Source: Octopus sinensis (lineage: Eukaryota). Taken from it: a stretch of DNA of 64,000 nucleotides. The stretch is taken from positions 14,942,001 through 15,006,000 of the forward strand of contig NC_043000.1 in NCBI RefSeq assembly GCF_006345805.1, in the 5' to 3' direction. The translations under genes were made by a program, and so were the position numbers. The notes beneath the pieces were generated by a model. That model did no database searches, was not told where the DNA came from, and worked only from the letters and a program-made list of their open reading frames with translations. Of this stretch, positions 14,331-44,846 are shown in pieces (positions within the stretch are counted from its first letter, which is position 1; every line of letters begins with the position of its first letter).

Positions 14331-14526
14331 TTAAGGAGGAACCATGTTCATATTCATTGATGTGGACAAAATGTGGTTACGGTATTGAACACTTAAACCA
14401 GTCATCCAGAACTTTAGCAACTGTTTGTCTTCTTCTTTGGCACCAACCACTTGCAGAAGTTTCTTCATGTCGTCTTCTGATCGGCTGCCACCAGCTTTGG
14501 TGAACTTGAATAGAACCTTTACTTTG
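14331..14526 (-). CDS. FLCN: Folliculin last coding exon
   Basis: [51 protein letters not shown]...PP-TAA; the nine exons sum to 1611 nt (536 aa plus stop) with no frame break. Confidence 0.95.
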
Positions 14527-15189
14527 CTGGAAAAATAAAAAAAAATTAAAATACTATAAAAAGTATTTCATCTAAATGGAGGGTGGGGGTTCCTTCTTAA
14601 TTTTTTACCAACAAAATGAACTGACCTGAAGGAAGTTGATAAAGTTTACAAATAATTTTATAAATGGCTAAATATGTTATTTTTTAATGCTGGACAATTA
14701 TCACCATTTTAATATCCACTTGTTCATGTTTGCATGGGTTGGAGGGAGTTTGTTGAGGAAAAGGCAAAAAAAACCTTTACTAAGTGGTGGGGAAGGTAAC
14801 TTTATGCCAGTAGAAGGACAAACACGGGTGTATGTGTATGTCTCTTCTTGTCTTGATAGCATATTCATAGAAAACTAGTGTCATTCGTTTGCAATCTTTC
14901 ATGTACCACATACAAAGTGCCCATACAAATACCATATGAAAAGCATCCAGTACATTTTGTAAAGTGGTTAGTGTTAGGAAGGGCATCCAACCATAGAAAA
15001 CAGACCACTGGAGCCTGGTGCAGCCCACCAGCTTGCCAGCTCCTGTCAAACCATCCAACCCATGCCAGCATGGAAAACAGAAGTTAAATGATGATGATGA
15101 TATATATATATATATAATGTATGTATATATGTGTGTGTTTGAGTCACTTCGTTTTGACATCATGTGATAGTTGTAAATGATTTTCATTG

Positions 15190-15680
15190 TCCATAGAGAG
15201 GGATTGACAATGGAGATACTGTATGCGGACGACCTTGTTCTGATGAGTGAGATGAGGGAGAAGTTTTGGAAATGGAAGGAGGTGTTTGAAGGTAAACCTC
15301 AGGAAGACAAAGGTGATGGTGAGCAGGGTGGAAGAAGTGTTGTTGGGTAAGGTGGATCCATGTGGTGTATGTGGGAGGAGGGTAATGGTAAATGCAGTGT
15401 TGAGTACAAGATGTGAGAAATGGATTCGTGGTACATGTACGAAAATGAAGAAGGTGACCCCAAGACTCTTGAGAGAGATTGTTTGTGGAAGATGTGAGAA
15501 GCTGGAGGGCTGGCGGAACCAGTGGAAACTGAGAGGGTTTTGTTATTTGGGAGATAGAGTGGATGTGAAGCAGCTGTGACAGCAAGAGCAAGACTTGGCT
15601 GGGTGAAGTTCAGGGAATGTGTAGCATTGTTATATGGGAAAAGGTTCTTGTTAAAGATGAAAGGAAGGGTCCCTGTTGAC
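15190..15680 (+). mobile_element. RTE LINE RT relic
   Basis: EILYADDLVL and KVNLRKTKVMV...PCGVCGR fragments, with stops and frameshifts. Confidence 0.75.
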
Positions 15681-16222
15681 AGGGACAAAACCCCAAAATT
15701 AAAACACTGGATGATGATGACAATAGAATACCAAATACTGTAGTATTCACCTTGAGAGATTCTTTCATATACACATATGGTATTAAGAGCACAGACATAT
15801 ATCATTAACAAACAAAAAATGTCTGGCATGAGTTCCAGAACTGCCAGATCATGTGATTTCACCATACTCGAGTTTCCTCAGTGGTAGGCATCTACTAACC
15901 ACATAGCAGCTAAATCTCACTGCCAACAATATCTAGAATAACACTGATATTGCAAATAGCCAGCAGACTTGTTAAAAAACAAATATTAGCAACAGAAGTA
16001 ATATTAATACCAAATAGCAATCATTATATCTTACTTAATGTGGATGTGTTATTAGAATGCCATATAGAGCGATATTTGCCTTGAGAGATCCTCTCGTGTT
16101 TATGGAGTTCAATACATATGACAGGCATACTGAGCACCCAAAAGTATACTAGTTAGATCATAGACACAAATCTCATTTAATAAACAAAGTGATCAATATT
16201 TAGTAGTAAAAAATATGCTTAC

Positions 16223-16325
16223 TTCATCCATTCTTCTTTTAAACAAATTAAGCATTGTTCAATAACTTCATAGCATAGATTTGTATTTCTTAGTGCAAGT
16301 TCCATACGGATTAGTACCTTAGGAG
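16223..16325 (-). CDS. FLCN: Folliculin coding exon 8
   Basis: (A)PKVLIRMELALRNTNLCYEVIEQCLICLKEEWM(N); 103 nt; gtaagc donor. Confidence 0.94.
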
Positions 16326-17360
16326 CTGAAAAAGGAAGACAATTTTTATAATTAAATACACGTGATTTACCCATGAAATAGAAAAGAAAAAGCAATCAAT
16401 AACATCATCATCATTGTTTAACGTCTGCTTTCCATCCTAGCATGGGTTGGACGATTTGACTGAGGACTGGCAAACCAGATGGTTGTACCAGGCTCTAATC
16501 TGATCTGGCAGAGTTTCTACAGCTGGATACCCTTCCTAACGCCAACCACTCCAAGAGTGTAGAGGGTGCTTTAAGTGCCATCGGCACAAAGGCCAGTCAG
16601 GCAGTACTGGCAACAGCCACGCTCAAATGGTGTTTTTTACGTGCCACCTGCACAGGAGCCAGTCCAGCGGCACTGGCAACGACCTCACTCGAATGTTTTT
16701 TCACGTGCCACCAGCACAAGTGTCAGTAAGGTGACGCTGGTAATGATCACACTCAAATGATGCTTTTTATGTGCCACCGGCACGGAAGCCAGAATTCAAA
16801 ACAAACATGCTTACTGTCTTACAAAACTGTTGGACAAGATCGAAGAGGAGGATTTTCGTGGTAATTCTATAAAACAAGACTAAAAGACAGCGTTACCAGG
16901 CATACAAAAGGCAACTGTTAGAAGGGCAGAAAAGATTCACTGTAAGTAATACACAGAGAAAGATCAATTCCATATGGATAAGCTGATAAATGATCTTACT
17001 TTCTCTTTTTCTAAGTTTTATATTTACAATGGGTTCTCAAAATACAAAGATGATCTGTTTTGGAGGTCTGTTCTTTAACCAAGCTGTTTACTACATGAAT
17101 AATTAAGAACATATAAACAGGGTAATACATTCTAAGCCATGCCCACATAAAAGCAGGAAATGTTTTACTTGTCCATCCATCAACAGCAAATACATAAATA
17201 TATATATATATGATTGATTGATTGATTGATTCTAGTTTCAGCTCATGAACTGTGGCCATGCTGGGGCACCGCCATTATATATATATATATATATATATGA
17301 TTGATTGATTGATTGATTCTAGTTTCAGCTCATGAACTGTGGCCATGCTGGGGCACCGCC

Positions 17361-17393
<33 letters not shown>

Positions 17394-18651
17394 GTGTGAA
17401 TATGTGTATATATGTGTGTGTGTATGCATGTTTTCCCTTTGTCTTCTTCTGTTGATACATAGCTAATCATCATCATCATCATCATTTAGTGTTTGCTTTC
17501 CATGCTAGCATGGGTTGGACGGTTCAACTGGGGTCTGTGAAGCCAGGAGGCTGCATCAGGCCCAGTCTGATCTGGCAGTGTTTCTACGGCTGGATGCCCT
17601 TCCTAACGCCAACAACTCCGTGAGTGTAGTGGGTGCTTTTTACGTGCCACCCGCACAGGTACCAGACAGAGCTGGCAAACGGCCACGAACGGATGGTGCT
17701 TTTACGTGCCACCGGCACGGGGGCCAGGCGAGGCTGGCAACGGACACGAACGGATGGTGCTTTTTACGTGCCAAAAAAATGAGAAAAATAATTTTCTATA
17801 TAAAACAGGAAAATTTCCAAGAAAGATGAAATGTGTTCATAGACATTAACAAACCATACGTACAAGCTTTCCCAGCCACTTAAATGTGTGTGTAGTTTCC
17901 CATGGTTTGTTATTCAAATTTCAGCTCATTGGTTGAATATAATTTCCTTCAGAAAAACATTTGCTAAACAATTGGCTAATTTAGCATACCATTCATATAT
18001 GCTCTTCTAGCACTTATACACATGTGTGGTCTACACAGATTTTGCTGTTCAAATATGAAATCATTAAGCAAATGGACTCCCAGTCATTTATACACATACA
18101 TAACCTGCACATGATTCGTGGATCAAATTTCAGTTCAGTATGCAAATTCAATTTTCTTCAGAAAAATCATTTGTTATTCAATGTTCATTTAGAGAACCAT
18201 TCATATATGGCTATCCCACTGAATATCTGTATGCTACCATGGTAGTATACTTTACTTTTGTAATCTAGATAATGTCAGAGATAGTAGTTTTATAGCTAAT
18301 GTATCTGTTGCATTACCAACCATTCTACTGTAAAAATATCTGTCAGGCAAAACTGAGAGAATCAGAATAATATAAAATACAATTACAATGACTGAAACAT
18401 GTTTTGAACTTATACATATATGTGATCATTAGACCAGCACCTCAAATTCACAACCAGAGTTACCATATCTGATGGCATAAAAGACACACAGGCATATTAG
18501 ATGCACCCCAATTTCAGCAGAGCATAATTGAAGAATAGAAGTTTAGTCATGATAGGTCAGCTGGTATTGACAAATATCACCAGTCCACTGTTACAATAAT
18601 CCCTTTTATAGTACAAATAGTAATAATAATGTTTAAGTAAATATTATTCAT

Positions 18652-18964
18652 GTGGAGGCGCAATGGCCCAGTGGTTAGGGCAGCGGACTCGCAGTCATAG
18701 GATCGTGGTTTCGATTCCCAGACCGGGCGTTGTGTGTGTTTATTGAGCGAAAACACCTAAAAGCTCCACGAGGCTCCGGCAGGGGGTGGTGGTGACCCCT
18801 GTTGTACTCTTTCACCCCAACTTTCTCTCACTCTCTCTTCCTGTTTCTTGAGTAACGCTGCAATTGACTGGCGTCCCGTCCAGCTGGGAAGAACACACAC
18901 TACAGAAACCGGGAAACTGAGCCCATGAGCTTGGCTAGGCTTGAAAAGGGCAAAAAAGAAAAAA
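18652..18964 (+). mobile_element. tRNA-derived SINE, same head with tail type 2
   Basis: TSD AAATATTATTCAT; related copies at 29992-30280 and 53941-54227 (TSD GATAAGATTAGAT). Confidence 0.85.
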
Positions 18965-19176
18965 AAATATTATTCATATAATTAGGTTAGGCAGAAGAGA
19001 CTATCTCGATTAAAATTAACCTATAGTAGTAAACACCAGGGACAAAATTAGCTTATGGGAAACCCAACTTCATGCATAGAACCAGGGATGATTTTCTGAA
19101 ATATTTTGGGGAAAAAAATGTCTTATATGCCATCAAATATGGTACATATAAATTGTTTAAAAATGGAAATTTTTAC

Positions 19177-19402
19177 CTTTATCTGGCAGGATAACATGGC
19201 TACTGATTTTGAACTCATAGCTATTGAGATCTTGTGGTCCCTCTTCAGGACTGAGAATCTCTATTAAAAGGAACTGTTCTGAGTTTAGAATATGGTTAGG
19301 TAACAAAACTCCAAGAGGGACTCCTAAAAAGTTGCAGCGCCAAGATTCTTCATACTTTTCACTGTAAGGAATTATTTTACAACAACCTTTTGGTAATAAA
19401 CC
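19177..19402 (-). CDS. FLCN: Folliculin coding exon 7
   Basis: GLLPKGCCKIIPYSEKYEESWRCNFLG...LPDK; 226 nt, phase 1; canonical splice sites. Confidence 0.94.
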
Positions 19403-22282
19403 CTGTGGTGAGATAAAAAAATAAACAAATAAAAATGCCATGATGAGAGAGAAAAATGATTCAATAAAATTTATTTTTAAAAATGGTGTGCATTGAAGGA
19501 AATTAAAGAGAATTATCAGTAAAAAATAAAAAACAGAATAATTCAACATTAAATCATTAACAACTAATTACATTGTTACAGGGAAGAAGTGTCTGAATAA
19601 ACAAGCTGGACTCTCTTCCCTCAGACCCAGATTTCATATCCAGTTGTTGGCTTTATTGGAAGACAGTTCACTCTATCTGCTGAGCCTTCAAACCTAGTCA
19701 CTTATGTATATATCATCATCATCGTTTAACATCCGTTTTCCTTGCTAGCACGGGTTGGACGGTTTGACTGGGGTCTGGGAAGCCAGGAGGCTGCACCAGG
19801 CTCCAGTCTGATCTGGCAGTGTTTCTACAGCTGGATGCCCTTCCTAACGCCAACCACTCTGTGAGTGTAGTGGGTGCTTTTTACATGCCACCGGCACAGG
19901 TGCCAGGTGAGGCTGGCAACGGCCACGATCGGTTGGTGCTTTTTACGTGCCACCGGCACAGAGGTGAGTCGAGGCAGCACTGGCAACGGCCACATTCAGA
20001 TGGTTCTTTTACATGCCACCAGCACTGGTATCACAACTACAATTTCCATTGATTTTTTATCGATTTCAATTTTGATATTGATTGATTTGATTTTGATATA
20101 TGTATATATACATAACTAACTAGGAAATCAAAATCAAAATCTAGTTACTTATGTATATATATTTATACATTTCCTAGAAATATCAATAAAAACTTATCAC
20201 ATGATATGTTGTCCAAAAAAAAGTTTGAGAATTTCATGGTGATTGAGATAGAAGTAGAATAAAATTCACAATTTAGCATACACAGATGATATAAATGATA
20301 TGATCAGTTAGAGAGAACATCTATACAATCCAGATGTCAAGAAGAGAAAAACACTTAATCCAATGACAATGAGACATCAAAATATACAGGATTGTTTAGA
20401 ATTAGAGAATGTGTGGATTCTTGAGCAGGTTTAAATACCTGTAATCAATAAATTACCAATCAATATTTTTTTTTTTTTCACTACCCACAAGGGGCTAATC
20501 ATAGAGGGGACAAACAAGGACAGACAAAGGGATTAAGTCGATTACATCGACCCCAGTGCGAAACTGGTACTTTATTTATCGACCCCGAAAGGATGAAAGG
20601 TAAAGTCGACCTCGACAGAATTTGAACTCAGAACATAACGACAGACGAAATACCGCTAAGCATTTCGCCCGGCGCGCTAACGTTTCTGCCAGCTCGCTGC
20701 CTTATTACCAATCAATATTAATTAAGTAACAGGAGTGCCTGTGTGGTAAGTAGCTTGCTTACCAACCACATGGTTCCAGGTTCATTCCCATTGCATGGCA
20801 CCTTGGGCAAGTGTCTTCTACTATAGCCTTGGGCTGACCAAAGCCTCGTGAGTGGATTTGGTTGACAGAAACTGAAAGAAGCCAGTCGTATATATGTGTG
20901 TGTATATATATATGTATGTATGTATGTATGCATGTGTGTGTATATGTTTGTGTGTCTGTGTTTGTCCCCCCAACATCACTTGACATCCGATGCTGGTATA
21001 TTTACGTCCCCGTAACTTAGCGGTTCGGCAAAAGAGACCGATAGAATAAGTACTAGGATAACAAAGAATAAGTCCTGGGGTCGATTTGCTAGACTAAAGG
21101 CAGTGCTCCAGGATGGCCACAGTCACATGACTGAAACAAGTAAAAGATTATTCATACAAAGAGGCTAGAGCAGGTTCTCATTTTAGAGGAACTATAGACT
21201 ATTATTTAAAACTAACACATTATCATCATCATTTCACATCTGTTTTCCATGCTGGCATGGGTAGGATTGTTTGACAGGAACTGGCAAGTCAGAAGACTCG
21301 CAACAAGCTCTGCTGTCTGTTTTGAACATGGTTTCCCTGGTTGGATGCCCTTCCTATAATGCCAACCTTCCTATAGTGCCAGGCGAGGCTGGCATCAGCC
21401 ACGGTCGGATTGGTGCATTTTATGTGCCACTTGCACGGAAGCCAGTCGAGGCAGCACTGGCTTCGGCTACGATTCGGATGGTGCTTTTTACGTGCCACCG
21501 ACATGGAAGCCAGTCGAGGTGGCGCTGGCATCGGCCACGATTCGGATAGTGCATTTTACGTATCTCCAGTCCAGGGGTCCTGGCATCTGCCGGGTGCCAG
21601 TCATAGGATTGGTTCAATTTCGATTCCGATTCTTGTGTATCATAATGAAGCAAATAACAAGTAACTTTGTATTTATCAAATGTGAGCACAGTATCTCATG
21701 AAGTTGGGATTCCCCAGTCGAAGACATAAGCTTTACATGTATTTGAAGCAAGAACCGTCTAGTGGAAACACTCTTTAAACAAGCTACATTCATAGAACTT
21801 CAACTCAATCCAAGCTAACACAACACATCACTTATGCATTGATATCAGTTTATAGTAGTGAGCTAAACCTATACATGATGCCTTGTTCAGATCCCAGATC
21901 ATCAGGGATCTAGCAGACCTACCAACAAACCATACCAACCATGACTATCCCATCTTATATTTTAAGACATGATACATCTAGGACTATTATCCAATTTGTT
22001 CGTCATTTTTAAGACAATAGGGTGTGTGTGATTCTAAGGAATCTTGGTAGTTATTTCAAGCAGATGAAGTGACTTCATAGAGGCTGCCACACTGATTCAT
22101 CTACATGATGTCCATTGTAACAAGGTAGACTATGTCATTGAAAGTATGTACAACTACATCACAGAGCCAAGATATCAACCACTGATCCTGCAGCTACGAA
22201 TCTGTGAAGCCTATCGATTCAGTCAACTATAACACCAATCATTATAATAGAACAGATGAAATAATTTTGGGTAATAACAAAC

Positions 22283-22396
22283 CTTCAAGACTTCTAACAT
22301 TGACTTGACAAGCTGTTTCTCTGCACCCTTGACAATTAACTGGTTCCCTATGACAATATGATGGGCCACTGTGTGAAAGTTTAAATAACCAAGCAC
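22283..22396 (-). CDS. FLCN: Folliculin coding exon 6 (DENN domain)
   Basis: VLGYLNFHTVAHHIVIGNQLIVKGAEKQLVKSMLEVLK; 114 nt; cag acceptor and gtttgt donor. Confidence 0.94.
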
Positions 22397-23364
22397 CTGT
22401 AAAAGAAGAAAAAAACACACAATCCATTAGACTACAGTTATTTGTTACTCACTACATTTAGATTACCCTTTAGCATTTAAAACTGGTCATATCCGGCCCA
22501 AATATTTAACCTATTTTATGTTCAAACCAGATCCAGCCTCTTACACATCATCATCATTTCACGTCTGCTTTCCATGCTGGCATGGGTTGGATGGTTTGAC
22601 TGAGGACTGGTGAGCTGGATGGCTGCACCAGACTCCAATCTGATCTGGCAGAGTTTCTACAGCTGGATGCCCTTCCTAATGCCAACCACTCCGAGAGTGT
22701 AGTGGGTGCTTTTACATGCCATCGGCATGGGGGCCAGTCAGGCGGTACAGGCAATTAATGTGGAATATAATGTAGAAATTCACACAACTGCACTTGTATA
22801 GATGTATGAAGGGGTGCTGCAAAAATCCTGGCTTTAAGGGTATTACAAAAGGCCTGGTTGGAGACCCAACCTTCAGAGTTCTTTTACAAGGATTAGAAAA
22901 ACTAAAGGACCACTGCAGTAAGTGTGTGAATCTGAAAGGGGGATATGTTGAATAAAATCATAATTAACTGATCCACCAGTATTTTCTTTTATCCAATGCC
23001 ATGAACTTTTCAACACCCCCTCATTTAGTGCTAAGACACACAAGAATATCATGCCAGACAATTTTCGTTTGCTACTGATATTCCTCTATGCTTTTTAGCA
23101 CTATACATCTATATGAGATAGTTTCTTGAGATGAATACTGCAGTTGTGTGGTTTTCTACTGTACATCACATTGCAAGAGATTGGTAGAGGCAGCTAATAT
23201 ATGGAACGCTGTGAACAACAAATTATAATTTCATTTCAAGTACATTTAAGATAATTAGTAGGGATAAAAAAAGAACATAATATTGATCTGGTGTGGGCAG
23301 AGGTGTATAGTAACTTGAGAAAATTTAGTATTTTAAAGGAAAAAAATTGACAGTACAAAATTAC

Positions 23365-23492
23365 CTGCATAACATTTTGTAAATTATAAAATCTCGGCTG
23401 ATCTGGGTCGGCATCCATTGAATCAATGTCTGGATTTTCTTTGTCTGGACTGGATTTCCTCATGTAGAGTTTTATAAAGCCTTCTTCAGTTT
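23365..23492 (-). CDS. FLCN: Folliculin coding exon 5
   Basis: (E)TEEGFIKLYMRKSSPDKENPDIDSMDADPDQPRFYNLQNVMQ; 128 nt restores phase 0; canonical splice sites. Confidence 0.9.
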
Positions 23493-23841
23493 CTAGAAAA
23501 ATAAAAGGGACAGAATAATTCATTTACACTTTGTAAATGTTCATCCATTCAGGCTTCTACACAATTTTTGTCTATCAATTTCACTCACAAGGCACTGGTC
23601 AGCTGAGGCTATAGTAGAAGATACTTACACATGGGGTCATGCAGAGAGATTGAACTCAAAGATACATGCTTGCAAAGCAAGATTCTTAACCACACAGCCA
23701 GACCTGCGTCTGTGGTCAGTAATCCATCTTAACCTTAGAGTCATTATATATCATGCATTAACAAGCAAAATAAATTTTGGAAATTATTGTTCATCAAAAT
23801 TTTGCTTTATTAAGATTTTTTTTTTAAATTCTTCAACTCAC

Positions 23842-24097
23842 CTTCTAATCTCTCTGTATCCAGAATAGCATCTTCTGTAGGAGGGGCTTCTAGAGAGGTT
23901 TCAGTTATTCGGTTAACGCAAGCTTTAAGGATCCACACAAACGATACATGTAACATTTTGAAAATATGTTTATCATCTGTTAATTCCTTCAATGATCGAG
24001 CTGGCTTGTTACCACCTCGTTGAAACCGGAAGCTTGCTGGGTAAATACTATCTCTGTAGCCTTTCTGCGGACATCTTGTCTGTTCTTCAGTGTAGAC
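23842..24097 (-). CDS. FLCN: Folliculin coding exon 4
   Basis: VYTEEQTRCPQK...PARSLKELTDD...LEAPPTEDAILDTERLE; tag acceptor and gtgagt donor; 256 nt, phase 1. Confidence 0.93.
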
Positions 24098-24182
24098 CTA
24101 ATAAACATTAAGGGTAACATTAGACCAAAGTAAAAACAATTCACTCAACTACTTTGAAAAAGAATGACACACACACATATGC

Positions 24183-24212
<30 letters not shown>

Positions 24213-24218
<6 letters not shown>

Positions 24219-24410
24219 AGAGTTTATGAAAAAACAAAAGACGAAGACAGGTGGTGTATAAAACAAACAGATGTATTAGTATAATGCTCAGGAATAGAAA
24301 AAGTCTTTTACGTTTCGAGCCTATGCTCTTCTACAGAAAGGGACACAGAAAAAACAAGGAGAGAAAACAATGTGTGTAGTGGCTAACGATCTATCATGGT
24401 GACTAGTACC

Positions 24411-24415
<5 letters not shown>
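24213..24415 (-). mobile_element. Penelope-like short element with a hammerhead-like motif (24303-24344), inside a (TA)n tract
   Basis: Minus strand: GTCCCTTT-CTGTAGA-aGAGC atag GCTC-GAAAC-GTA-AAAGAC. Confidence 0.5.
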
Positions 24416-24457
<42 letters not shown>

Positions 24458-24778
24458 TCTTGAAACTTGAGTATGAAGGGGTACTGAAAAGTTCCTGGCT
24501 TTAAGGGTAACACAAAAGGGCTGACTGGAGGCCCAACCTTCCGACTTCTTTTACAGGGCTTAGAAAAACTGAAGGACTGCTGCAATAACTGTGCGAATCT
24601 GGGAGGGGAATATGTTAAATGAAACCATAATTAACTAATCTTCCTCTATCTTTTTTTTACCCAAAGCCAGGAATTTTTCAGCAATCCCTCAGATGTATGC
24701 ACCTGCGTACATATGTATGCATGTATGTACATACGTATGAATGAATGCATGCATGTATTTATTTATTTATGCATATAT

Positions 24779-24991
24779 ATGAGGGGGGTGCTAAAAAGTT
24801 CCTGGCTTTAAGGGTACCACAAAAGGCTTATTTGGAGGTCCAACCTTCCCATTTCTTTTGCAAGCCTTAGAAAAACTGAAGAATTGCTGTAATAAGTGGG
24901 TGAATCTGAGAGTTGGATATGTTGAGTAGAATCATAATTTTCTGACATTTTCTTTTACCCAAAGCCAGGAACTTTTCAGCACTCCCTCATA
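24779..24991. mobile_element. Tc1/mariner-type MITE (~215 bp); related copies at 22806-23023 and 24473-24692
   Basis: TIRs tatgaggggggtgctaaaaagttcctggcttt and aaagccaggaacttttcagcactccctcata in TA context. Confidence 0.75.
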
Positions 24992-25944
24992 TATACCCTC
25001 CCCATTTATCTCTCTTTTTCCAGCTGAGAAAGCCATGTATCTCCTCTATCATACTTTCATCATACAACGTCACTCTATCATACTTTCATCTCAGTTGAAC
25101 AGGGCCTTATTTTCAAAGTTACTTGGTGACCTCGTTAATGCTGGTGCCACAACAAAAGCACCCAGTACACTTGTAGAAACCCATGTCAAAGCAAACACTG
25201 GAGTTTGCCACAGCCTTCTGTTTCCCTGGTTCTTGTCAAGCCATTGAACCCATACCAACACAGAAAACAGATGTTAAACAATGATGATATGTATATATAC
25301 ACACATACATATAAGCATGAAAATTGCATGTTAAAACAATGACCATGGTGTGTGTGTGTGTGTGTATGAGAGAGAGGAGAAAGAGAGCCATTACAGCTAT
25401 AGAGTGCTGACACAACATAGTCTCAAGTTTGGTTCCACTGTGTGATACCTTGGTCAAGTGTCTTCCACCATGGCCCAGGGTCAGCCAAAGCTTATGGATG
25501 GATTTGGTAGGCGGAAACTAAAAGAAGCTTGTCATATATGTAGACCCCTCTGGCACGTAAAAAGCACCCACTACACTTGCTGAGTGGTTGGCATTAGGAA
25601 GGGCATCCAGCTGTAGAAACACTGCCAGATCAGACTGGAGCCTGGAGCAGCCCCTGGCTCCCCAGACCCCGGTCGAACCGTCCAACCCGTGCTAGCGCAG
25701 AAAACGGACGTTAAACGATGATGATGTGTGTCTATACCCTTGCCTTGATATCACATAATGGTTGTAAATGAGCATCACTGTCATACCAGCAGTGTTATTT
25801 GTTTCCAGTTTTCTATGAAACATATTTGGCCATAGGGAAATATTTCCTTGCTTGTAAACAGATGAAGTGACAGGAAGGGTATCCAGCCATGGAAAAATCT
25901 ACCTTAAACAAATTCCATCTGACTCATGCAAACAAAAATAATTG

Positions 25945-26308
25945 GTTCTATATTTAAGAGATGAGAAATTATGTACATTATTTATATTTGACAGATAATT
26001 GTCCTCATCTTGTTTGTTGTTAACACAACGTTTTAACTGATATACCCTCCAGCCTTCATCAGGTGTCTTGGGGAAATTTTGAACCTGGGTTCTCATTCTT
26101 GAGGTATTTTTTGATGTTGTTGTTATTATTATTATTATCATTATTAAGGTCACTGCCTGGAATTGAACTCGGAATCTTGGGGTTAGTAGCCCATGCTCTT
26201 AACCACTATGCCATATGTTGAATGAAATCGTATGGCGTAGTGGTTAAGAGCACTGGCTACTAACCCCAAGATTCCGAGGACAAATATCCATCAAATGTAA
26301 ATAATGTA
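25945..26308 (-). mobile_element. tRNA-headed SINE-like element with a decayed hammerhead tail and an inverted partial copy
   Basis: tRNA-like head at about 26150-26218 (-); GACAC-CTGATGA-aGGCTG...CAGTT-AAAAC-GTT-GTGTT at 26021-26068; inverted head and tail at 26230-26308. Confidence 0.55.
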
Positions 26309-26471
26309 ATTAATGAAAAATAATTGGGTATTAAATGATGATGATTTCTGATTCAAAACACAGGGCAAATTATTTCAATAAATATCAACAATGTTAGCTT
26401 ATTCTCATTTTTTTTTCTCCTGTTCCACTTAAACTACTTCAACAGAAAAAGAAGAATTACACACAAGTTAC

Positions 26472-26693
26472 CTTTTCTGCTTTCATTTGTAGTTGCTTGA
26501 TAACAAGTTGTAAATTTGGTACAAGGAAAGACCAAGAGTTCAACAAATATAATTTGTCCATCATAACAATGATGATGCTATACCAACGTTTAAATCCACG
26601 AGCTTGATTATCTTGGATATAGAAAGTGTAACTGAGAACATTGCCTTGTTGTTTATCACCAAAGAAAATAGGACCTTCTCGACCGGGACACAC
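26472..26693 (-). CDS. FLCN: Folliculin coding exon 3 (longin domain with the ARGF arginine-finger motif)
   Basis: [13 protein letters not shown]...[14 protein letters not shown]...MKAEK; canonical AG/GT; 222 nt. Confidence 0.96.
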
Positions 26694-26883
26694 CTGTGGG
26701 GTATAAAAAGAGTGAAAATAGCAATAAAATGTGACTAAACAGCTGATTTTTTTTCATTAAAATCATTACTTAGATATTTTTCTTTTTTATAGTGTCCATC
26801 TCCTACCAGATATTATAATTTATAAAACGGCAATCTGTTCAAAGTGGCAACAAACCAAGAATAATCCAGAATTATTTTTCCTA

Positions 26884-27537
26884 GGCGTATCCAGCCCACT
26901 TATGTGTACCTTTTCCTTCTTTGGACACTAAAACTCTGCTTGCGAAGACCTGTTGAGGCAAGTGAAATCAAATCAAACCAATCAAAATCAAATTTGATGA
27001 CTGGCGTCCGTGCTAGTAGGGTGCAAAGAGCACCATACGAGTGTGATCATTGACAGAGCGACTAACTGGCTTCCGTGCCAGAGGCACTTAAAAGGCACCA
27101 CTCGAGCATGATCGTTACCAGCGTCGCCTTACTGGCATTTGTACCCGTGCTAGTAGGGTGCCAAGAGCACCATCCGAGCATGATCGTTGCCAGAGCAGCC
27201 AACTGGCTTCCATGCCAGTGGCACGTAAAAGGGCACCATTCGAGCGTGATCGTTACCAACGTAGCCTAACTGGCACCTGTGCTGGTGGCATGTGTAAAAA
27301 GATTCGAGCGAGGTCGTTGCCAGTACCGCCAGACTGGCCCCCATGCTGGTGGCAAGTAAAAAGCACCCACTACACTCTCAGAGTGGTTGGTGTTAGGAAG
27401 AGCATCCAGCTATAGAAACTCTGCCAAATTAAGATTGGAGCCTGGTGCAGCCATCTGGTTCGCCAGTCCTCAGTCAAAATCGTCCAACCCATGCTAGCAT
27501 GGAAAGCGGACGTTAAACGATGATGATGATGATGATG
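26884..27537 (+). mobile_element. RTE-tail retroposon with (GAT)n end, long copy
   Basis: More than 20 related copies in both orientations, e.g. 11885-12360, 12724-13205, 16403-16790, 17468-17772, 19712-20050, 41364-41687, 45848-46410, 57641-57925, 58945-59218, 62336-62630. Confidence 0.85.
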
Positions 27538-27882
27538 AACAATTGAGACTAGAGATATTATCCAACCATCATGTTTTTGGTCTACCCCTAGGTCTCTCAT
27601 CAATTGACTTGGCTTGAGAAAGGTCTTGCAATTCTTTCTTGTGATATTCTAATCACATATTCATAGTACCAGAGCTGTGACCCCTCCATGCAGAGAAATA
27701 GCATCTCCCTGATCTCTGACCTATGCACTCTTGTCAAGTAACATTATTCTAGAGATCCTTTGGAGTAGGCGCTCTCAACCACTTTTTATCTATGGAACCC
27801 CTTTGATTACTATTTTAATCTGGTCACCCCTATACCCATTTGAAGTTTAAAAACTAGTTTTATAGAAAATTCTTTCAAAATT

Positions 27883-28166
27883 AGAAATAATACATCTCTA
27901 GAACTCTCAGAGAGATTTATGCAGTAGTGATACAATAAAGTAGTTATATGCTGTCAACTTAATGTGACAGTCCCATGAAGGGAATAATACTACTGCTATT
28001 TAGCCCTAGGAAGCATCAATGCTTCCTGTCAGCCTTGACACATTTCCTGTGTCCTTATGTTTACAAGAGGGAGACAAGCACCTCCACCCAGCTAAGCCAG
28101 CTTCAAGAGACTAGTTTCTGAGTCATTGCTCGTCTTCAGTCTGGAGTAGCATGGCCTGCTAGTTTA
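27883..28166 (-). mobile_element. Short hammerhead-containing retroelement nested in a hAT MITE
   Basis: 12-bp TSD TCTTTCAAAATT (27871-27882 and 28167-28178); hammerhead motif near its 5' end. Confidence 0.72.
28101..28146 (-). ncRNA. Minimal hammerhead ribozyme motif
   Basis: Minus strand: CTCCAGA-CTGAAGA-cGAG caatga CTCa-GAAA-CTAG-TC-TCTTGAAG; canonical CUGANGA/GAAA core and GUC triplet. Confidence 0.65.
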
Positions 28167-28622
28167 TCTTTCAAAATTCCTATTTTGTTTTTCACACATT
28201 AATTTGTGTAAGTTGAACTAAGTAAATGTTAGAGAAAGAAACCTGTTTCTTGCAATACATACAAATGCACACATCTAAAGCAAAATTTTTTCAGGGGCCC
28301 TTAAAATACTGTTGTGGATTCCAAATTTACTATTTTGTTACATGGACTCCCCAAAATCTTTTATGAACCTTCAGGGGCTATATGGACCCCGGTTGAGAAC
28401 CACTATTTTGGAAGAACCCCATTTCGACCACCTACATTCACAATAATACTGACATAAATTCTCTAAATACAACTACACAGGTGTTTCTCTTATAAGTAAT
28501 AAAAAAATCTCCATTTTGCAGTTTTAAATTATTCCTAAAAAAGAACTTGAAAAAATACCAAATGCATAGTATTCGATAATAATTTTGAAATATATAAGAC
28601 ATAAAAAAAAAGTATGCATTAC

Positions 28623-28760
28623 CTCACAACTAAGACTTCGCAGACAAGCTTGTCGTACCATACTAAAAACTTTGGGGTGGTGTGGATGTTGGCTGCTCAC
28701 ATAACTAATAGGAACTTCATCATCGTGACTAACAAATCCAGTTTTGACTGAATAACAGCC
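28623..28760 (-). CDS. FLCN: Folliculin coding exon 2
   Basis: [46 protein letters not shown]; canonical AG/GT; 138 nt. Confidence 0.95.
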
Positions 28761-29261
28761 CTGCATGAAACAAATTATCCAGTTTTTAAAAAGATATACA
28801 AGTGACAATAAGCAATTATGAAGAACACAAATTTATAATTCATCACAAAATAAACTGGCATGTTAAACATTTGAATTCTAATTCTTTTGATCTTTTAACT
28901 GGTTACTCGTATGTGATGGAGAATTCAAGGGAGCTGAAATTTACTGAGGTGAAGTCTGCTGTAAGTTTGTGCCCTCTTTCCAGATGTTGCTAGACTTGTA
29001 TGGTTTGTTGTGCTATTTGAAGGTAAATGATGAGAAATGACATAATAGTCTAGAGATTTTCCTGAACAAATATCCAATGTTTACATTTAAAAATAAAAGT
29101 GAAATATAAAGCAAAAACTGCAAGGAAAGAAGAGAGAATAAAAACGAGACAAAATAAAGGGGAAAGAAAAAAATAGTAGTGTAAAGAAAGAAAAAGAAAA
29201 TAGTGAAATGGAGAGAATGAGAGAGAAGGAAGAATACAGAAATAGGAGTAAGATGACATAC

Positions 29262-29489
29262 TTCACAAAGATCTGTCTTCATACTTGTCACAGCAGCACT
29301 ATCAGTAGAAGAAAAAGAACCATGTCTTATGGCTTTTGACCGGTTGTGTAGATGACCAGCACTGACATCAGACAATGCATCCTCATCATCTACAGCTCTG
29401 TGTTCTTGTGGATGGAAAGATTGTGTGCAATATACAATTCTTGGGCCATGGAGTTCACAGAAGTGACACACAGCTATGATAGCATTCAT
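29262..29489 (-). CDS. FLCN: Folliculin coding exon 1
   Basis: MNAIIAVCHFCELHGPRIVYCTQ is the diagnostic FLCN N-terminus; acceptor at 29509-29510 leaves 19 nt of UTR; gtatgt donor; 228 nt. Confidence 0.96.
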
Positions 29490-35625: not shown

Positions 35626-36343
35626 ATGTTTATGGGTTCGTTACCTACTTTTACAGGTGATGCCACACTGTGGTTTTCACAGTTAGAGGCACAATTTCGT
35701 GCACAAAGTATTACTCCCGAGCAGCAGTTGCAAATCCTTTATGGTTGCATGCCGCCTCAACTGGCATCTATAGCAAGAGACCTTATCACAGACCCTAGTC
35801 CAGGCGCTACTTATGCGTCTGTTAAATTAGAGGTAGAGAAAAGAAATACACGAAGCGAGGAAAGTCGTTTCAACGAATTAATGGCAGATGAGCAACTGGG
35901 AGATAGGACTCCGTCAGAATTTTTACGAAGACTGAGGGAGTTAAGTGGTAATGCATCAGACGCCCCCCTCCTTCGGAAGATTTTTTTTCGAGGTTGCCCG
36001 CCTATATACAGACCGTTTTGGCAACCGGCTTAGAGACAAATACAGTGGACCAAATAGCAACGATGGCTGATAAGATGGTTGAATTTGCCGTTCAACCATC
36101 GTCACGGTCTGCTTGTGCCTGTTCACAAACTTCTTCGGCCTCAATTGAGGGGCTTTCTAAACTAATAGAAACCCTCACTAAAAGGATGGTCGCGATGGTA
36201 AGCGATCTTCAAAATCGCGGAGTCGCAGTCGTTCATCCTCGAGATCAACACAGTCTAAGTCTGGACTGTGTTGGTACCACTCCAAGTATGGAGAGAATGC
36301 ACATAGGTGCACACAGCCATGCACTTATAAGTCTTTAAACTAG
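35626..36343 (+). CDS. gag: Gag of the Gypsy element, split by two apparent 1-nt deletions
   Basis: LPTF...[10 protein letters not shown]...[16 protein letters not shown], then [10 protein letters not shown], then SRSRSRS and [18 protein letters not shown] (C-x2-H-x9-C-x3-C). Frame jumps at the T8 run 35981-35988 and the A4 run 36180-36183. Confidence 0.85.
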
Positions 36344-39300
36344 ATTCGGAGAATTTGAGCACGTCAACTTCCTCCACAACATTTTCTAGTTATCGTGCAT
36401 TCTTTGTTAAGGATCTAGTGTCGAAGAAAAACTTCATGGTGGACACTGGTTTTTGTTGCAGTATTTGGCCACTGCGTTGCACAACCGACAGGCCAAAACG
36501 ATCTAACGTCATCTTGCACGCTATTGACTCGTCACCAATAGCCACATTCGGTCAGATCTCGTTACGCCTTGATATTAATCTTCGTCGAGACTTTCAATGG
36601 GTTTTTGTCATTGCCGACATTCCGCATCCTATTTTAGGTGCGGATTTTCTGGATAAATTTGATTTGTTGGTAGATGTCAGATGTCGGAGGTTGGTCGATA
36701 GTTCGACTACACTCTCCACGCCGACCGGAGAATCTACCAATTTAGCTCTTAGCCCGACATTTTTTGTCGGTACATCTGGAGATGTTTTTCACTCTCTTTT
36801 AGCTTCTTTTCCAGAGCTATATGATGTTACCTTTAGGGTGGCTAAGCCATTGCATTCGACACGACACTTTATAACAACAACTGGACCTCCTGTTTTTTCA
36901 CGTCCAAGGCGTCTTGCACCTGATCGACTTAAAACTGCTAGGGCTGAGTTTGAGCATATGCTCCAGCTCGGTCTGATACGCCCCTCCACCAGTCCATGGG
37001 CATCTCCCCTTCATTTAGTAAGAAAAGGGGATACAGATTTTCGCCCGGTGGGAGATTATCGGCGTCTAAATTCGGTGACGATTCCGGACAAATATCCCAT
37101 AAGGATTTTAAACGATTTTTCGGCAAATTTACATGGCTGTACTATTTTTTCTAAGGTTGACCTCATACGTGCCTACCATCAAATACCGGTCAACTCAGAC
37201 GATATTCCTAAAACAGCAATTACTACTCCTTTTGGCTGTTTCGAATTTTTATTTATGAGTTTTGGTTTGAGGAATGCCACTAGTACTTTCCAACGGTTTA
37301 TAGATGAAGTTGTTCGCGGACTTGATTTTGTGTTCGCGTATGTCGATGATATTCTAATCGCAAGTGATACGCATGAAAATCATCTCCTGCACTTGTCTCA
37401 GCTTTTTCAGCGTCTTCGCGACTATGGTGTTCGCATTAATCCAGACAAGTGTGTTTTTGGGCAACCATCTCTTAATTTTCTCGGTCATTATATTGACTCG
37501 AGAGGAATCAAACCATTCTCATCCAAAGTCGATGCTATTCAGCGCATCGCACCACCTTCTTCTTTGCGTCAACTTCGCCATTTTTTAGGCATAGTAAATT
37601 TCTATAGACGTTTCATAGATCGGTGTGCAGACAAGTTGTTACCTTTAACACAGATGCTAAAGGGCAATTCCAAGAAGGACGCCCGTCTTGCTCTTTCGGC
37701 TGAAGCACTATCTGCCTTTAATTTAGTTAAAAAGGAAGTAGCTTCAGTCCCTATTTTGGCACATCCGGCTCCTAATGCTCCACTTACTTTATCTGTGGAC
37801 GCATCAGAGTCTGCAATTGGCGCTGTTTTGCAGCACACCGTAGAGGGTGAAGTTAAACCTTTAGCTTTCTTTTCTTGTCAGCTAAAGCCAGCTGAACGCA
37901 GATATAGTACTTTTGATCGAGAGTTACTAGCGATCTATCTGTCAGTTCGGCATTTTCAACACCAGCTCGAGGGACGAGAGTTTGTGATTTATACTGATCA
38001 CAAGCCCCTTACTTTTGCACTATCTTCTAAAACGGTTAAACTCTCTCCTCGTGCTTTCCGTCACCTGGACTATATTTCTCAATTTACAAGTGACATTAGG
38101 CATGTGCCAGGGACGGAGAACATCCCGGCTGATGCGCTCTCTAGACTCGCTGTCAATTCCATTTCCTCTCCTGCAGCAATTGATTTAACTGCTATTTCGC
38201 AGGACCAACAACCTTTAGAGGAGTTGGATTTAGCTTCACCTAGGTTTATTAACTGCAGGTTTGCCTACCTCCAGCTCCCTACAGCGGAAGGCTCTATTCT
38301 TTGTGACGTTTCTACCGGTTCACCTAGACCATTAGTACCTGAGAAACATCAACGTTCTGTGTTTGATGCTCTTCATTCACTGTCACATCCAGGTATCTCT
38401 GCCACAGTAAAGCTTGTTACCGCTCGGTTCTTCTGGCCCAATATGCGACGATCAATTACCTCTTGGGCACGCTCTTGTTTGAGGTGCCAGAGTGCTAAAG
38501 TCCATAGACACGTTCGTGCTCCACTTGGACAATTTTCCTCTCCTGAAGCCCGTTTTCGCCATATCCACCTTGATTTGGTTGGACCATGGCCTGTGAGTCG
38601 CGGGTTCTCATACATCTTAACTTGTATTGATCGTTTTTCACGCTGGCCGGAAGCTATTCCTATAGCAGACATTTCAGCTGAAACTGTTGCGAGGGCTTTC
38701 GTATCTAATTGGATTTCGAGGTATGGTGTACCGTACAGTTTAACCACAGATCGTGGTCGACAATTCGAGTCTGCATTGTTTCGTGAGTTATCACGAATCC
38801 TGGGGATGCATCATATACGCACCACAAGTTACCACCCCGCTTCTAATGGGATGGTGGAGCGTTTCCATAGGCAACTTAAGGCCGCTTTGCGTGCCTCGCC
38901 GAATCCACAGTCATGGACTGAATTTCTACCGATCGTCCTGCTTGGATGTCGGACTGCGATTAAAGCAGACCTTGGTTTTTCGTCTGCCGAGCTCTTGTAT
39001 GGTACCACACTGGCATTGCCTGGTACGATGTTGGTGCCAGACAAGTCACAGTCTCTTAATTTAGAGTCTTATGTTGCTCGATTACGCAGATATTTTTCTG
39101 CCCTTCCTCCTATGGACCCTCGACACCAAAATCCTCCTTCTAGTGTGCCATCAGACCTTAATTCTTGGACGCATGTTTTTATTCGTGATGATTCTGTCAA
39201 AGGACCTCTTGTTTCTCCTTATAAAGGACCTTTTCGTGTGATTTCTCGCACGCCGAAGGTATTCAAACTTGAAATTAACGGTCGTTCGGAGACCGTCTCC

Positions 39301-39546
39301 GTAGATCGTCTTAAAAGGGCATATTTTGAGGTGTCCACATCTTTTAATGACCCCACTGCCACAACCATCGTTGAACCTTCACATGCACCTTTGACAACAC
39401 CACTATTTACACATGCACCATTATCAACACCAACATCGACAACACCACCTTCGTCGTCGCAGCCTGCCTCGAACAGACCTTATGTTACGAGGTCAGGCAG
39501 AACTGTTCACTGGCCGAAAAAACTTTCCAAAACTATTTATATTTGA
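36334..39546 (+). CDS. pol: Pol polyprotein (protease, reverse transcriptase, RNase H, integrase)
   Basis: ORF 36355-39546 (1063 aa; frame open from 36331): VDTG protease, YVDD RT, DAS...ELLA...TDHKPL RNase H, HHCC plus DDE integrase, PYKGPF. Confidence 0.96.
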
Positions 39547-42578: not shown

Positions 42579-44412
42579 ATTGTGTATATAGAGAGCTTTC
42601 ACATCATATTAATGTTGTATATGATGGTGGAGAGAGAGCACTGCGTAAATGATAGTGCCGGGTGAAAGGTAGTGTTCCTTTTTGACTCCACGTGTGTTGT
42701 GCTTAAAAACGTGTTTATATTCTTGGATGTGATAAAGTGTAGAATTAGATTAATTATTATCCTGCTTCCAGCTTCAGTGTTACTACCAGGATCTGAAAAA
42801 TAGGGCACATCTCCCCCACTTATTTTGTGATTTAGGGGGGATTTTTGAAAAACAAGGGGGAATTTGCAGTGATGTTTGGTGAACAAATTAAGCACACTAT
42901 CTGACAGTGGTTAAAATGCAAACCAATCAAGTTTATGTATAAATGTTCTTTTTATATATTTGTTTCCTTTTACACAATATTAAAACAATGGCTAAGAATT
43001 TTCTGAAGCAGTACTCCCACTAATTTTATCTACGAGCTACCAATGCTTATATATGGAGTTAGACCTCCCCAATAATTAATTATAGTGACCTCATTATCAG
43101 AGCTAGTTTTTTTTTAATGACATGTTAGGTAACACCATCATTTTAAGGCGGCGAGCTGGCAGAAATGTTAGTGCGCCAGGCGAAATGCTTAGCGGTATTT
43201 CGTCTGCCGCTATGTTCTGAGTTCAAATTCCGCTGAGGTCGACTTTGCCTTTCATCCTTTCGGGGTCAATAAATTAAGTACCAGTTACGCACTGGGGTCG
43301 ATCTAATCGACTTAATACCTATGTCTGTCCTTGTTTGTCCCCTCTATGTTTAGCCCCTTGTAGGTAATAAAGAAATAGGTATTTCGTCTGCCGCTATGTT
43401 CTGCGTTCAAATTCTGCTGAGGTCGACTTTGCCTTTCATCCTATTGGGGTCGATAAATTAAGTACCAGTTACGCACTGGGGTCGATGTAATCGACTTAAT
43501 CCATTTGTCCTTGTTTAGCCCCTTGTGGGTAGTAAAGAAATAGGTAATCCCAGCATGGTTTCTCCTGCAAACATGGAGGCTATGGATATGGTGCAAGGAA
43601 TGAAAAGAGGATAAAGGTTCTTTGAATTTTGTGATGTAAATGACACAAACATTTGCAACACTAACTTCAGGAAAGCAACTAGTGATCTGACCAGGCAAAC
43701 ATGCAAGCCAAATTGACTCACCAGGATACAGGATAAACAGATAATTGTGAATTAAGATTTTTTTTACTGGTGAAGAATCATCATCATCATCATTTAACGT
43801 CCGCTTTCCATGCTAGCATGGGTTAGACGATTTGACTGAGGTCTGGCGAAAAAGACTCCAATCTGATCTGGCAGAGTTTCTACAGCTGGATGCCCTTCCT
43901 AACACCAACCACTCCGAGAGTATAGTCAGTCTGAGAGTGTAGGACCACACTCAATTTAGACTATTGAATAAAACAAACAGCTGAACCCAGAGACACAAGA
44001 CAATTCAGAGAAAGAAAATGTGAAAGTTAAAAAATCCCTTTCAAGTGATAAAACATTTCAAGAGTGAGAAAAGACACAAACCTATAACATAGAGGACAAC
44101 TAGAAATTTATTATAGACCACTTGCTGTGAGCTGTAAACCAGATTTATGGTTGAAACAAGGTTCTAACCAAATCAAAAGAGATATGGTGTTGGAATGGTA
44201 GAGAAAACGGAGCTATTAAAGGCTAAAAGGCTTAGAATGACTGGAAGTGGGACATAGGAAACAATATTAAGTAGCAAGAAGTGAACTACATAAACATTGT
44301 AGCATAGAGAGAAGCTGAAAGTGAGAGGCTTGCCAAGATTCTGTTACAAGAGATTCAAAAGCATGAGTTGTTCTGGCGATCTTTCGTTTTAACTCGAAAT
44401 AATGTAAACATT

Positions 44413-44837
44413 ATTAAATCTCAGAATGAGATTGAAACAGTAATCACTCGATAATGTAAAGTATAGAAGCCATCTTATCATGGCTAACCACATTGGGGAG
44501 GGGGTGTTACTGTAGCTTTATAGCCCCAAGAGATCGTCGTCTCTAGCTGGCTTTAGACACAATATCAGTGCCCTTGGAGTATTTGCAAAGGGAGGCCATC
44601 CCTTCCTCGCAAGCCTGAGTGATACGCTCGAACTAGTTTCGGGATTTTTGTCCCTTGTCAACGGGCGGTAACCACCAGGTCGCGATGAAAGTGAAGGCTG
44701 CTTTGCAAATATATAAGTTTTTCTAGTGGCGTCTGCCACTGATTTCGAAAAACTGACAGTAAGCATAATTAAATCTCAGAATGAGATTGAAACAGTAATC
44801 GCTCGATAATGTAAAGTATAGAAGCCATCTTATCATG
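44413..44837 (-). mobile_element. Hammerhead-containing retrozyme or Penelope-pLTR-like element (355-nt monomer plus 70-nt redundancy)
   Basis: 44413-44482 is repeated at 44768-44837; flanking ATGTAAACATT duplication (44402-44412 and 44835-44845); internal hammerhead motif. Confidence 0.75.
44623..44670 (-). ncRNA. Minimal type I hammerhead ribozyme, U3-A8 variant
   Basis: Minus strand: TACCGCCCG-TTGACAA-GGGA caaaaa TCCC-GAAA-CTAG-TT-CGAGCGTA. Stems I and II pair, and the stem III region is the palindrome ACTAGT. Confidence 0.7.
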
Positions 44838-44846
44838 TAAACATTG

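Follow-up and report, generated by a model that had tools for sequence, protein, structure and literature searches.

The window analysed here, a 64,000-nucleotide stretch of the Octopus sinensis genome, carries a folliculin gene (Table 1). The intron between the folliculin exons at 28763-28620 and 26744-26469 contains a short insert, E1, which lies on the same strand as the gene, beside an exon that matches Octopus folliculin, and is itself nested in another repeat. This host repeat is multi-copy and is transcribed in another species. A second element, E2, lies at 44.4 kb. No coding ORF runs over E1 or its unit. The window also holds an uninterrupted LTR-retrotransposon pol ORF and 14-15 copies, from 2085 to 62590, of a SINE-like repeat that starts with (CAT)n and is unrelated to the retrozymes described below.

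Table 1. Features of the window, in window coordinates (TSD, target site duplication).
Feature	Position	Strand	Remarks
Folliculin gene	14334-29489	-	nine coding exon matches
Host repeat of E1	~27630-27870 and 28179-28410		
E1 TSD, left copy, TCTTTCAAAATT	27871-27882	.	12 bp; overlap in empty-site reads
E1, 5′-truncated monomer of retrozyme family A1	27883-28166	-	284 bp; unit positions ~70-351 of 351
E1 3′ multi-branched domain (predicted)	27883-28055	-	fold comparison
E1 type I hammerhead (predicted)	28101-28146	-	core and stems
E1 5′ end	28164-28166	-	homologous to the predicted transcription start (A1 position 70)
E1 TSD, right copy, TCTTTCAAAATT	28167-28178	.	12 bp
LTR-retrotransposon pol ORF	36331-39546	+	1071 aa; RT, RNase H, integrase
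E2 TSD, left copy	44402-44412	.	11 bp
E2, retrozyme family B1, 1.2 units	44413-44834	-	one ~355-nt unit and a ~70-nt partial upstream unit
E2 hammerhead (predicted)	44619-44675	-	U3-A8 core UUGACAA (44661-44655)
E2 predicted transcription start, AUCGC	44679-44686	-	as at U2 +1
E2 ATCAG promoter-like motif	44736-44745	-	57 nt upstream of predicted start; 57-61 nt in U2 genes
E2 TSD, right copy	44835-44845	.	11 bp

Reads from three RNA runs of another species (29, 31 and 28 reads) join position 27870 to 28167 with a 12-letter overlap. They stem from other copies of the host repeat and thus represent the empty, pre-insertion site of E1, bearing out an earlier note on this DNA that had described a 284-bp insert with a 12-bp TSD. 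The CUGAAGA/GAAACUAGUC hammerhead read by the same note is also present, but on the minus strand, where CUGAAGA (28139-28133) is followed by stem II and then by GAAACUAGUC (28118-28109). The predicted ribozyme consists of stem I, the core CUGAAGA, a 3-bp stem II, GAAA and a palindromic ACUAGU helix III, and would cut between 28109 and 28108. The predicted 3′ domain comprises, in order, a GACAC hairpin, a two-tier hairpin, a closing helix around three small hairpins and a terminal AUCUC/GAGAU hairpin, and the two fixed insertion ends of family A1 are located within it. An Rfam scan gave 32 matches at E<=1, all of them low-complexity miRNA matches and none a hammerhead; both E1 and E2 went unrecognised, and their hammerheads were identified by core and stems instead. 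E1 is ~7-10% diverged from its closest relatives (40 scored of 2643 first-look candidates). It has a private mismatch in stem I relative to the family consensus, a helix III of one pair and no tandem partner. In addition, the promoter motif is missing and the long closing helix has no 5′ strand. Because its promoter is lost and its tandem partner absent, E1 is most likely inert.

E2 runs well past the 44413-44600 interval to which the earlier note had confined it. Its hammerhead has a 4-bp stem II, an ACUAGU helix III and a predicted cut between 44631 and 44630, and its core is non-canonical, UUGACAA being of the U3-A8 type. Alignment of E1 with E2 gave 167 identical columns out of 262 (64%), with z scores of 13.7 (local) and 11.8 (global) over 500 dinucleotide shuffles, and of 0.6-0.7 for the opposite strand. 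The two elements are therefore plain homologues. The note had credited them with little sequence in common, which the 64% identity and the z scores of ~12-14 contradict; in the comparison with shuffled controls that it had proposed, they align far above the shuffles. The ordered modules that it had listed are all present and collinear in E1 and E2, but, having been read on the plus strand, they were given as the reverse complement of the RNA.

E1 and E2 belong to lineages A and B, respectively, of a ~350-nt non-LTR retrozyme that has three lineages in all, with unit lengths of 347-357 nt; lineage C and the B-related subfamily B2 were recovered from neighbours in the examined loci. In a six-way sequence-only alignment the lineages are mutually 52-59% identical, and the A and B consensuses are 65% identical when aligned pairwise and 53% in the six-way MAFFT alignment. 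First-look candidates across the genome numbered 2643 for A1, 2092 for B1, 3023 for B2 and 363 for C (40 scored per query), and the core pattern matched 953 times versus 14 in the control. In sets chosen by likeness to a query, copies are on average 97% (B1), 96% (B2), 90-93% (A) and 90% (C) identical to their consensus, which points to expansion waves of different age. RNA reads of another species contain family A, mostly at less than 95% likeness, and essentially no B1 (22 reads, all below 90%). The units stand head-to-tail with no internal body, are non-coding, have less than 50% GC and show no LTR, PBS or PPT layout, as retrozymes do by definition; TSDs of 11-14 bp in several further copies exceed the 4 bp of that definition. 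Tandems occur at the family level, with 3.9 and 2.6 units at the B1 loci L047 and L036 and ~2.3 units at the A1 locus L401. Since E1 and E2 contain one hammerhead each, they are "monomers" and not "active" by the 2026 definition. All in all, E1 and E2 are decaying copies of non-LTR retrozymes. Nine further hammerhead loci, eight of them tested, showed no detectable homology to A, B or C. Such older hammerhead repeats, also with an ACUAGU helix III and some of them in ~315-330-nt tandems, are found at L063, L065, L067, L073-L075, L080, L081 and L090.

The earlier note had proposed that compensatory changes maintain a multi-branched fold shared by two subfamilies. In our test, a single consensus was folded and its confident pairs were mapped via a sequence-only alignment onto another lineage; in the null, partners were re-dealt among pairs of the same type. 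When the A1 fold was placed on B1, 25 of 100 pairs were double-compensated versus 9.1±2.3 in the null (p=1e-4), and between lineages such pairs were 2-5 times as frequent as under re-pairing, also outside the ribozyme. All 12 comparisons based on the six-way alignment (p<=0.011) and all six pairwise-aligned ones (p<=0.009) were significant, as was the 3′ domain by itself in eight of eight (p<=0.022). The proposal thus holds and extends to lineage C. In 16 real copies placed on the fold of one A1 copy we counted 160 both-side cells versus 74.5±7.3 after shuffling and 42-61 after sliding; these cells count sequences, not events, and seven of the 16 rows are A. RNAalifold returned 29 pairs, 18 of them with compensation, and stems I and II of the family A hammerhead covary. 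The lack of significant covariation that the note would have taken as a refutation is thus not seen at the family level, but the two real copies alone reach significance in one direction only: the E2 fold on E1 gave 18 compensated pairs versus 9.3 (p=0.0002) and the E1 fold on E2 gave 6 versus 6.4 (p=0.68). The analysis covers three deep lineages. More B-lineage subfamilies, with the same hairpins in other letters, are found at L216 (~1497-1725) and in the reads of another species; none of these entered the test.

Helices whose strands lie 60-140 nt apart, bulges and the multiloop geometry are kept across lineages, and each lineage has a palindromic helix III, of which there are three different sequences. 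Among the covarying elements, a rod around the hammerhead is the largest. In all six subfamilies, a long closing helix (-13 to -31 kcal/mol) joins a strand from upstream of the predicted start to one that follows the cut, the letters having changed. Because it spans both start and cut, this helix would form only in a unit-length monomer, a circle or a multimer, and its geometry argues that the selected RNA is not a primary start-to-end transcript. Strand asymmetry is weak (G-U 42 versus A-C 14 on the hammerhead strand, 32 versus 18 on the other), and the sense strand is clearly more stable in four of six consensuses. Rare, private substitutions are about equally frequent at paired and unpaired sites in the five subfamilies tested, and private mutations are compensated in 22 of 1433 affected pairs. 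Inserted copies thus decay neutrally, so that selection acts on the source elements and not on copies such as E1. These results suggest that the whole-unit fold, kept by paired changes in three lineages, likely reflects selection on the copied RNA; much of this fold is a long rod that would bring the two ends of the cut monomer together, a shape that points to circularisation or stability no less than to recognition by an enzyme.

Part of what the units share is a DNA promoter motif, ATCAG, as it is found upstream of U2 genes. In 23 of 25 U2 loci ATCAG lies 57-61 nt before +1; each retrozyme unit likewise begins with it, and all six subfamilies place it 83-85 nt ahead of the core. A LINE family with an APE endonuclease and a reverse transcriptase (RT), 99% identical over 3.8 kb, marks the corresponding position in the retrozymes. 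Its members have entered both B1 copies and a U2 gene, with TSDs of ~15-18 bp (L406, G000:C3:19724000-19732000; further loci L403, L404 and L405); the insertion points are U2 +1 and, in A, B1 and C, the predicted start. The marked site lies ~59 nt behind ATCAG in A and B, and LINE tails adjoin this homologous site in seven of 71 A and six of 48 B1 loci. At the 5′ end of the copy in U2 there is a 14-nt B1 leader that begins at the predicted start, and the simplest reading is that this copy was transcribed from a B1 promoter. The leader is a footprint of promoter hijacking, and the LINE is a parasite of the retrozyme, not its helper. On this genomic footprint we infer a U2-like, snRNA-type promoter that would start transcription ~59 nt behind ATCAG. 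The 5′ end of E1 fits a full copy of such a primary transcript, yet this reading was rejected as 5′ ends other than those at LINEs are not enriched at the start: two of 36 A and two of 25 B1 sub-unit copies begin 56-61 nt from ATCAG, with ~2 expected in each by hand count. The match between the E1 end and the predicted start may be due to chance.

Insertion ends were analysed in 71 A loci (19 of 30, nine non-A and two duplicate loci having been dropped, together with 52 of the other 70 listed rows) and in 48 B1 loci from 100 listed rows, with second hits at one place skipped; both samples were taken in genome order from hammerhead pattern lists. In 57 of the 71 A and 43 of the 48 B1 loci, the 3′ end falls into one of two narrow classes, at the unit end or ~45-55 nt before it. 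Both classes also occur in C, and the shorter one lies in the loop of the same mini-hairpin in A, B and C; the distance from the cut site to the unit end is 220-228 nt in all lineages. A Pol III terminator as the cause of the 3′ end was discarded, the T-run that follows the end in A and B being missing in C. An inverted arm adjoins the 5′ end in 37 A and 12 B1 loci. Sixty copies were picked out by a motif that directly follows the cut; of these, 50 extend more than 10 nt past it, which implies a template continuous across the cut, either a circle or an uncut multimer; the reads do not distinguish a circle junction from a tandem junction. Eight of the 60 stop within 4 nt of the cut (6.4% expected, p=0.036), an excess that may reflect linear templates in some cases. 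In copies that exceed one unit, the sequence goes on into a further ~350-nt unit and not into an ORF, the longest reaching 3.9 units. Targets are AT-rich or (TA)n, and both end classes are at T/TA-rich positions. In L091 (4600-6630), L024, L115 and L117, retrozyme subfamilies and stumps of Penelope-like elements (PLEs) are clustered in (TA)n tracts. The published description of PLE insertions (PMC8557442) names 5′ truncation, partial tandems, an inverted 5′ copy, (TA)n targets and a tail at a single end, and the octopus insertions show all of these, (TA)n as a bias. They look Penelope-made, the type of enzyme being suggested by this footprint.

The families differ in their ribozyme cores. The A core is the canonical CUGAnGA in 26 of 33 copies counted. 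In B1, all 100 listed matches have U3, although the pattern allowed C or U: 73 are U3.G8, 26 U3-A8 and one other (hand count), and a B1 sample picked independently of the core contained no canonical core among 28. U3-A8 is coupled to a loop variant (22 of 33 versus 2 of 64, Fisher p=1e-11, three rows with other letters left out), which makes it the mark of a source sublineage and not random CpG decay. The consensus cores of B2 and C have U4C. U3.G8 impairs hammerhead cutting, and the young family B1 expanded with U3.G8 or U3-A8 cores. A literature search on the cutting rates of C3U/G8A gave no match. U3-A8 is described as an active natural covariation (PMC3088659) and is present in Schistosoma PLEs (PMC4209133), and U4C is reported to have lower activity in vitro, yet to support a viroid (PMC3088659). 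The B1 cores, together with those of B2 and C, suggest that efficient cutting may be dispensable. The helix III palindromes of every lineage would fit cutting as a dimer. No accumulation of read ends at the predicted cut was seen in RNA from another species, a weak test since the reads are unstranded cDNA; a single read end with 22-23 reads was seen at 27919 in one run only.

We favour, with a probability of about 0.78, a non-coding hammerhead retrozyme whose whole-unit fold is likely kept because only source RNAs that fold in this way are cut, closed and recopied by a borrowed, probably Penelope-type enzyme. The collinear units, covarying stems and constant ATCAG-to-core spacing of A, B and C are the starting point of this scheme. 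Transcription would begin at the snRNA-type promoter, whose footprint the LINE preserves, and would run through tandem units. Two neighbouring hammerheads could then cut as a dimer via the palindromic helix III, and the freed unit, its ends held together by the long rod, would be closed by a host ligase. Two fixed positions of the 3′ domain, lying ~170 and ~225 nt after the cut, would serve the RT as alternative starting points, as the footprint of the 3′ ends suggests, and from there it would run through the cut to leave truncated, inverted or more-than-unit copies in AT-rich or (TA)n targets. Once inserted, the copies decay neutrally.

The step of this scheme that we hold least firmly is recognition of the 3′ domain by the enzyme, a proposal to which we give somewhat less than even odds. 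That the fold is a recognition signal for a helper RT, as the earlier note had supposed, is kept as a working hypothesis: fixed ends lie at homologous landmarks in three lineages, and no helper sharing the domain was found. A contending account of this one step, which we give similar odds, has the fold selected because it stabilises the transcript, helps to join its ends or protects the circle, with an enzyme that ignores it; the insertion ends would come from endonuclease resolution and TA microhomology. The prominence of the rod among the covarying elements and the T/TA-rich positions of both end classes, next to (TA)n targets, agree with it, as does the 30-40 bp tail at one end that is described as general in Penelope elements and ascribed to endonuclease resolution (PMC8557442). 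Against it, the 3′ domain covaries by itself, and the end classes coincide with homologous landmarks in lineages 52-58% alike, despite many other TA-rich sites in the units. A bolder form of the recognition proposal is rather unlikely in our judgement. In it, the covarying ~170-nt 3′ domain would act through structure alone as a docking and priming signal, and retrozyme circles unrelated in sequence would use it to recruit a telomerase-related RT of the Penelope type at two defined sites, homology to the ends of the helper not being required; the youngest family would spread with a crippled U3.G8 core as fold and promoter, and not cutting speed, limit success.

Two protein searches recovered five Penelope-like families, whose ORFs of the RT and GIY-YIG type are long and intact (727-919 aa). 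One is very young, with 97-99% protein identity and 19,544 first-look candidates. Three have a detected hammerhead with a helix II of 40-60 nt, and the core of the young family is U4C; a UUGACGA in one PLE 3′ UTR, likened to the B1 core, was dropped, the core of that PLE being a downstream CCGAAGA. Neither the unit nor the 3′ domain is common to any of the five intact families (45 ORFs in 46 examined loci, from the best candidates of 19,544 and 29,632 first-look matches), and three retrozyme matches in PLE loci are separate insertions. Among the units of A, B and C examined, none had an RT/GIY-YIG ORF belonging to it; a GIY-YIG remnant beside two units in L091 is of an unrelated family and on the opposite strand. 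These data bear on the idea that the units are terminal repeats (pLTRs) of an unsampled autonomous Penelope-like element, with the copies as its 5′-truncated stumps and the fold as its 3′ UTR. We regard this as improbable. Only the best first-look PLE matches were scored, the insertion anatomy is Penelope-like (PMC8557442) and retrozymes of Xenopus match pLTRs (Li, Clavereau and Pollet, 2026, bioRxiv 10.64898/2026.07.22.740005), all of which speaks for it. However, what follows in over-long copies is another unit and not an ORF, none of the A, B and C units was observed in continuity with a Penelope ORF, and the five intact families have unrelated 3′ UTRs, the three with a hammerhead having a long helix II.

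The paired changes themselves could in principle be a mutational artefact, produced by template switching between the arms of near-palindromes with no selection on RNA. Inversions are frequent in A and present in B1, and the fold has little strand preference, as such a process would leave them. Nevertheless, the long-range helices, bulges, multiloop geometry, three helix III palindromes and 83-85 nt spacing are kept, the stems have not been perfected into uninterrupted palindromes and private mutations are almost never compensated, so that we consider this origin quite improbable. That E1 is a domesticated intronic ribozyme regulating folliculin is barely credible: it is on the strand of the gene, in an intron and with a canonical core, but it is one of thousands of copies, diverged from its closest relatives, nested in a repeat, mismatched in stem I and left with a one-pair helix III and no tandem partner.

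The borrowed-enzyme retrozyme that we favour is of a kind already known from other animals. The available text on metazoan non-LTR retrozymes of coral, Mytilus and axolotl (Cervera and de la Pena, 2020, PMC7229834) describes type I hammerheads in non-coding units of 150-450 bp with less than 50% GC, no LTR, PBS or PPT, TSDs of more than 4 bp, a mismatch at the base of helix II and a highly self-paired monomer, and the octopus units are alike in all of these. The axolotl motifs, which cut as dimers, have a palindromic helix III of one or two pairs like the octopus units, and PLEs were proposed there as the helpers of retrozymes. Long arrays are described in those systems, whereas the octopus copies are mostly dispersed, truncated or inverted. 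The same text presents MFE folds and notes that the coral structures are alike; a whole-unit covariation test across ~55%-alike lineages, fixed ends and a promoter do not figure in it. Xenopus retrozymes resemble those of octopus in co-occurring with intact PLEs, in forming monomers and multimers and in unit length, but 21 of their 57 families match PLE termini, versus none that matches the five intact octopus families; the taxa named in the available part of that preprint are vertebrates, insects and one coral, with no mollusc (bioRxiv 10.64898/2026.07.22.740005).

Hammerhead-carrying PLEs that encode an endonuclease (Cervera and de la Pena, 2014, PMC4209133; Craig et al., 2021, PMC8557442) share with the octopus units truncation, partial tandems, an inverted 5′ copy, a tail and (TA)n targets, and a circular template model was proposed for them in 2014 (PMC4209133). 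The octopus units differ in having no ORF, a helix II of 3-4 bp and a long helix I, the PLE motifs being minimal (PMC4209133). In the available text of these two papers (PMC4209133, PMC8557442) we found no expanding family in which most cores are U3.G8. Newt satellite 2 is likewise a hammerhead repeat with an internal snRNA-type promoter (Coats, Zhang and Epstein, 1994, as cited in PMC2220036); unlike it, the octopus promoter is deduced from the motif shared with U2 and the leader captured by a LINE, not from transcription assays. Compensatory changes in hammerhead stems are described for the Dolichopoda pDo500 satellite too (Martinsen et al., 2010, PMC2837043). In that satellite, lower conservation is described outside the hammerhead, whereas compensation in octopus extends over the whole unit. 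The octopus LINE resembles Keno, a U2-targeting Tx1 LINE (PMC4494074), in its APE-type endonuclease, its RT and its presence in U2 genes. The likeness is one of features, and beyond the Keno trait the octopus LINE also targets the predicted start of a retrozyme.

In the literature we searched, which left aside most subscription journals, Repbase and Dfam, we found no report of whole-unit retrozyme covariation across lineages with homologous insertion ends, and no cephalopod hammerhead retrozyme of this type, for which an entry could exist in Repbase or Dfam. The single 27.9-kb copy is ordinary and probably inert. Its family bears on how animal retrozymes are recognised and copied and on which template Penelope-type RTs accept, open questions in the available texts of this field (PMC7229834; bioRxiv 10.64898/2026.07.22.740005). 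Natural U3.G8, U3-A8 and U4C cores in families of hundreds to thousands of copies would offer a direct test of how much cutting is needed, and three ~55%-alike lineages with one fold, one promoter spacing and two homologous ends are natural compensatory mutants for priming and binding assays.
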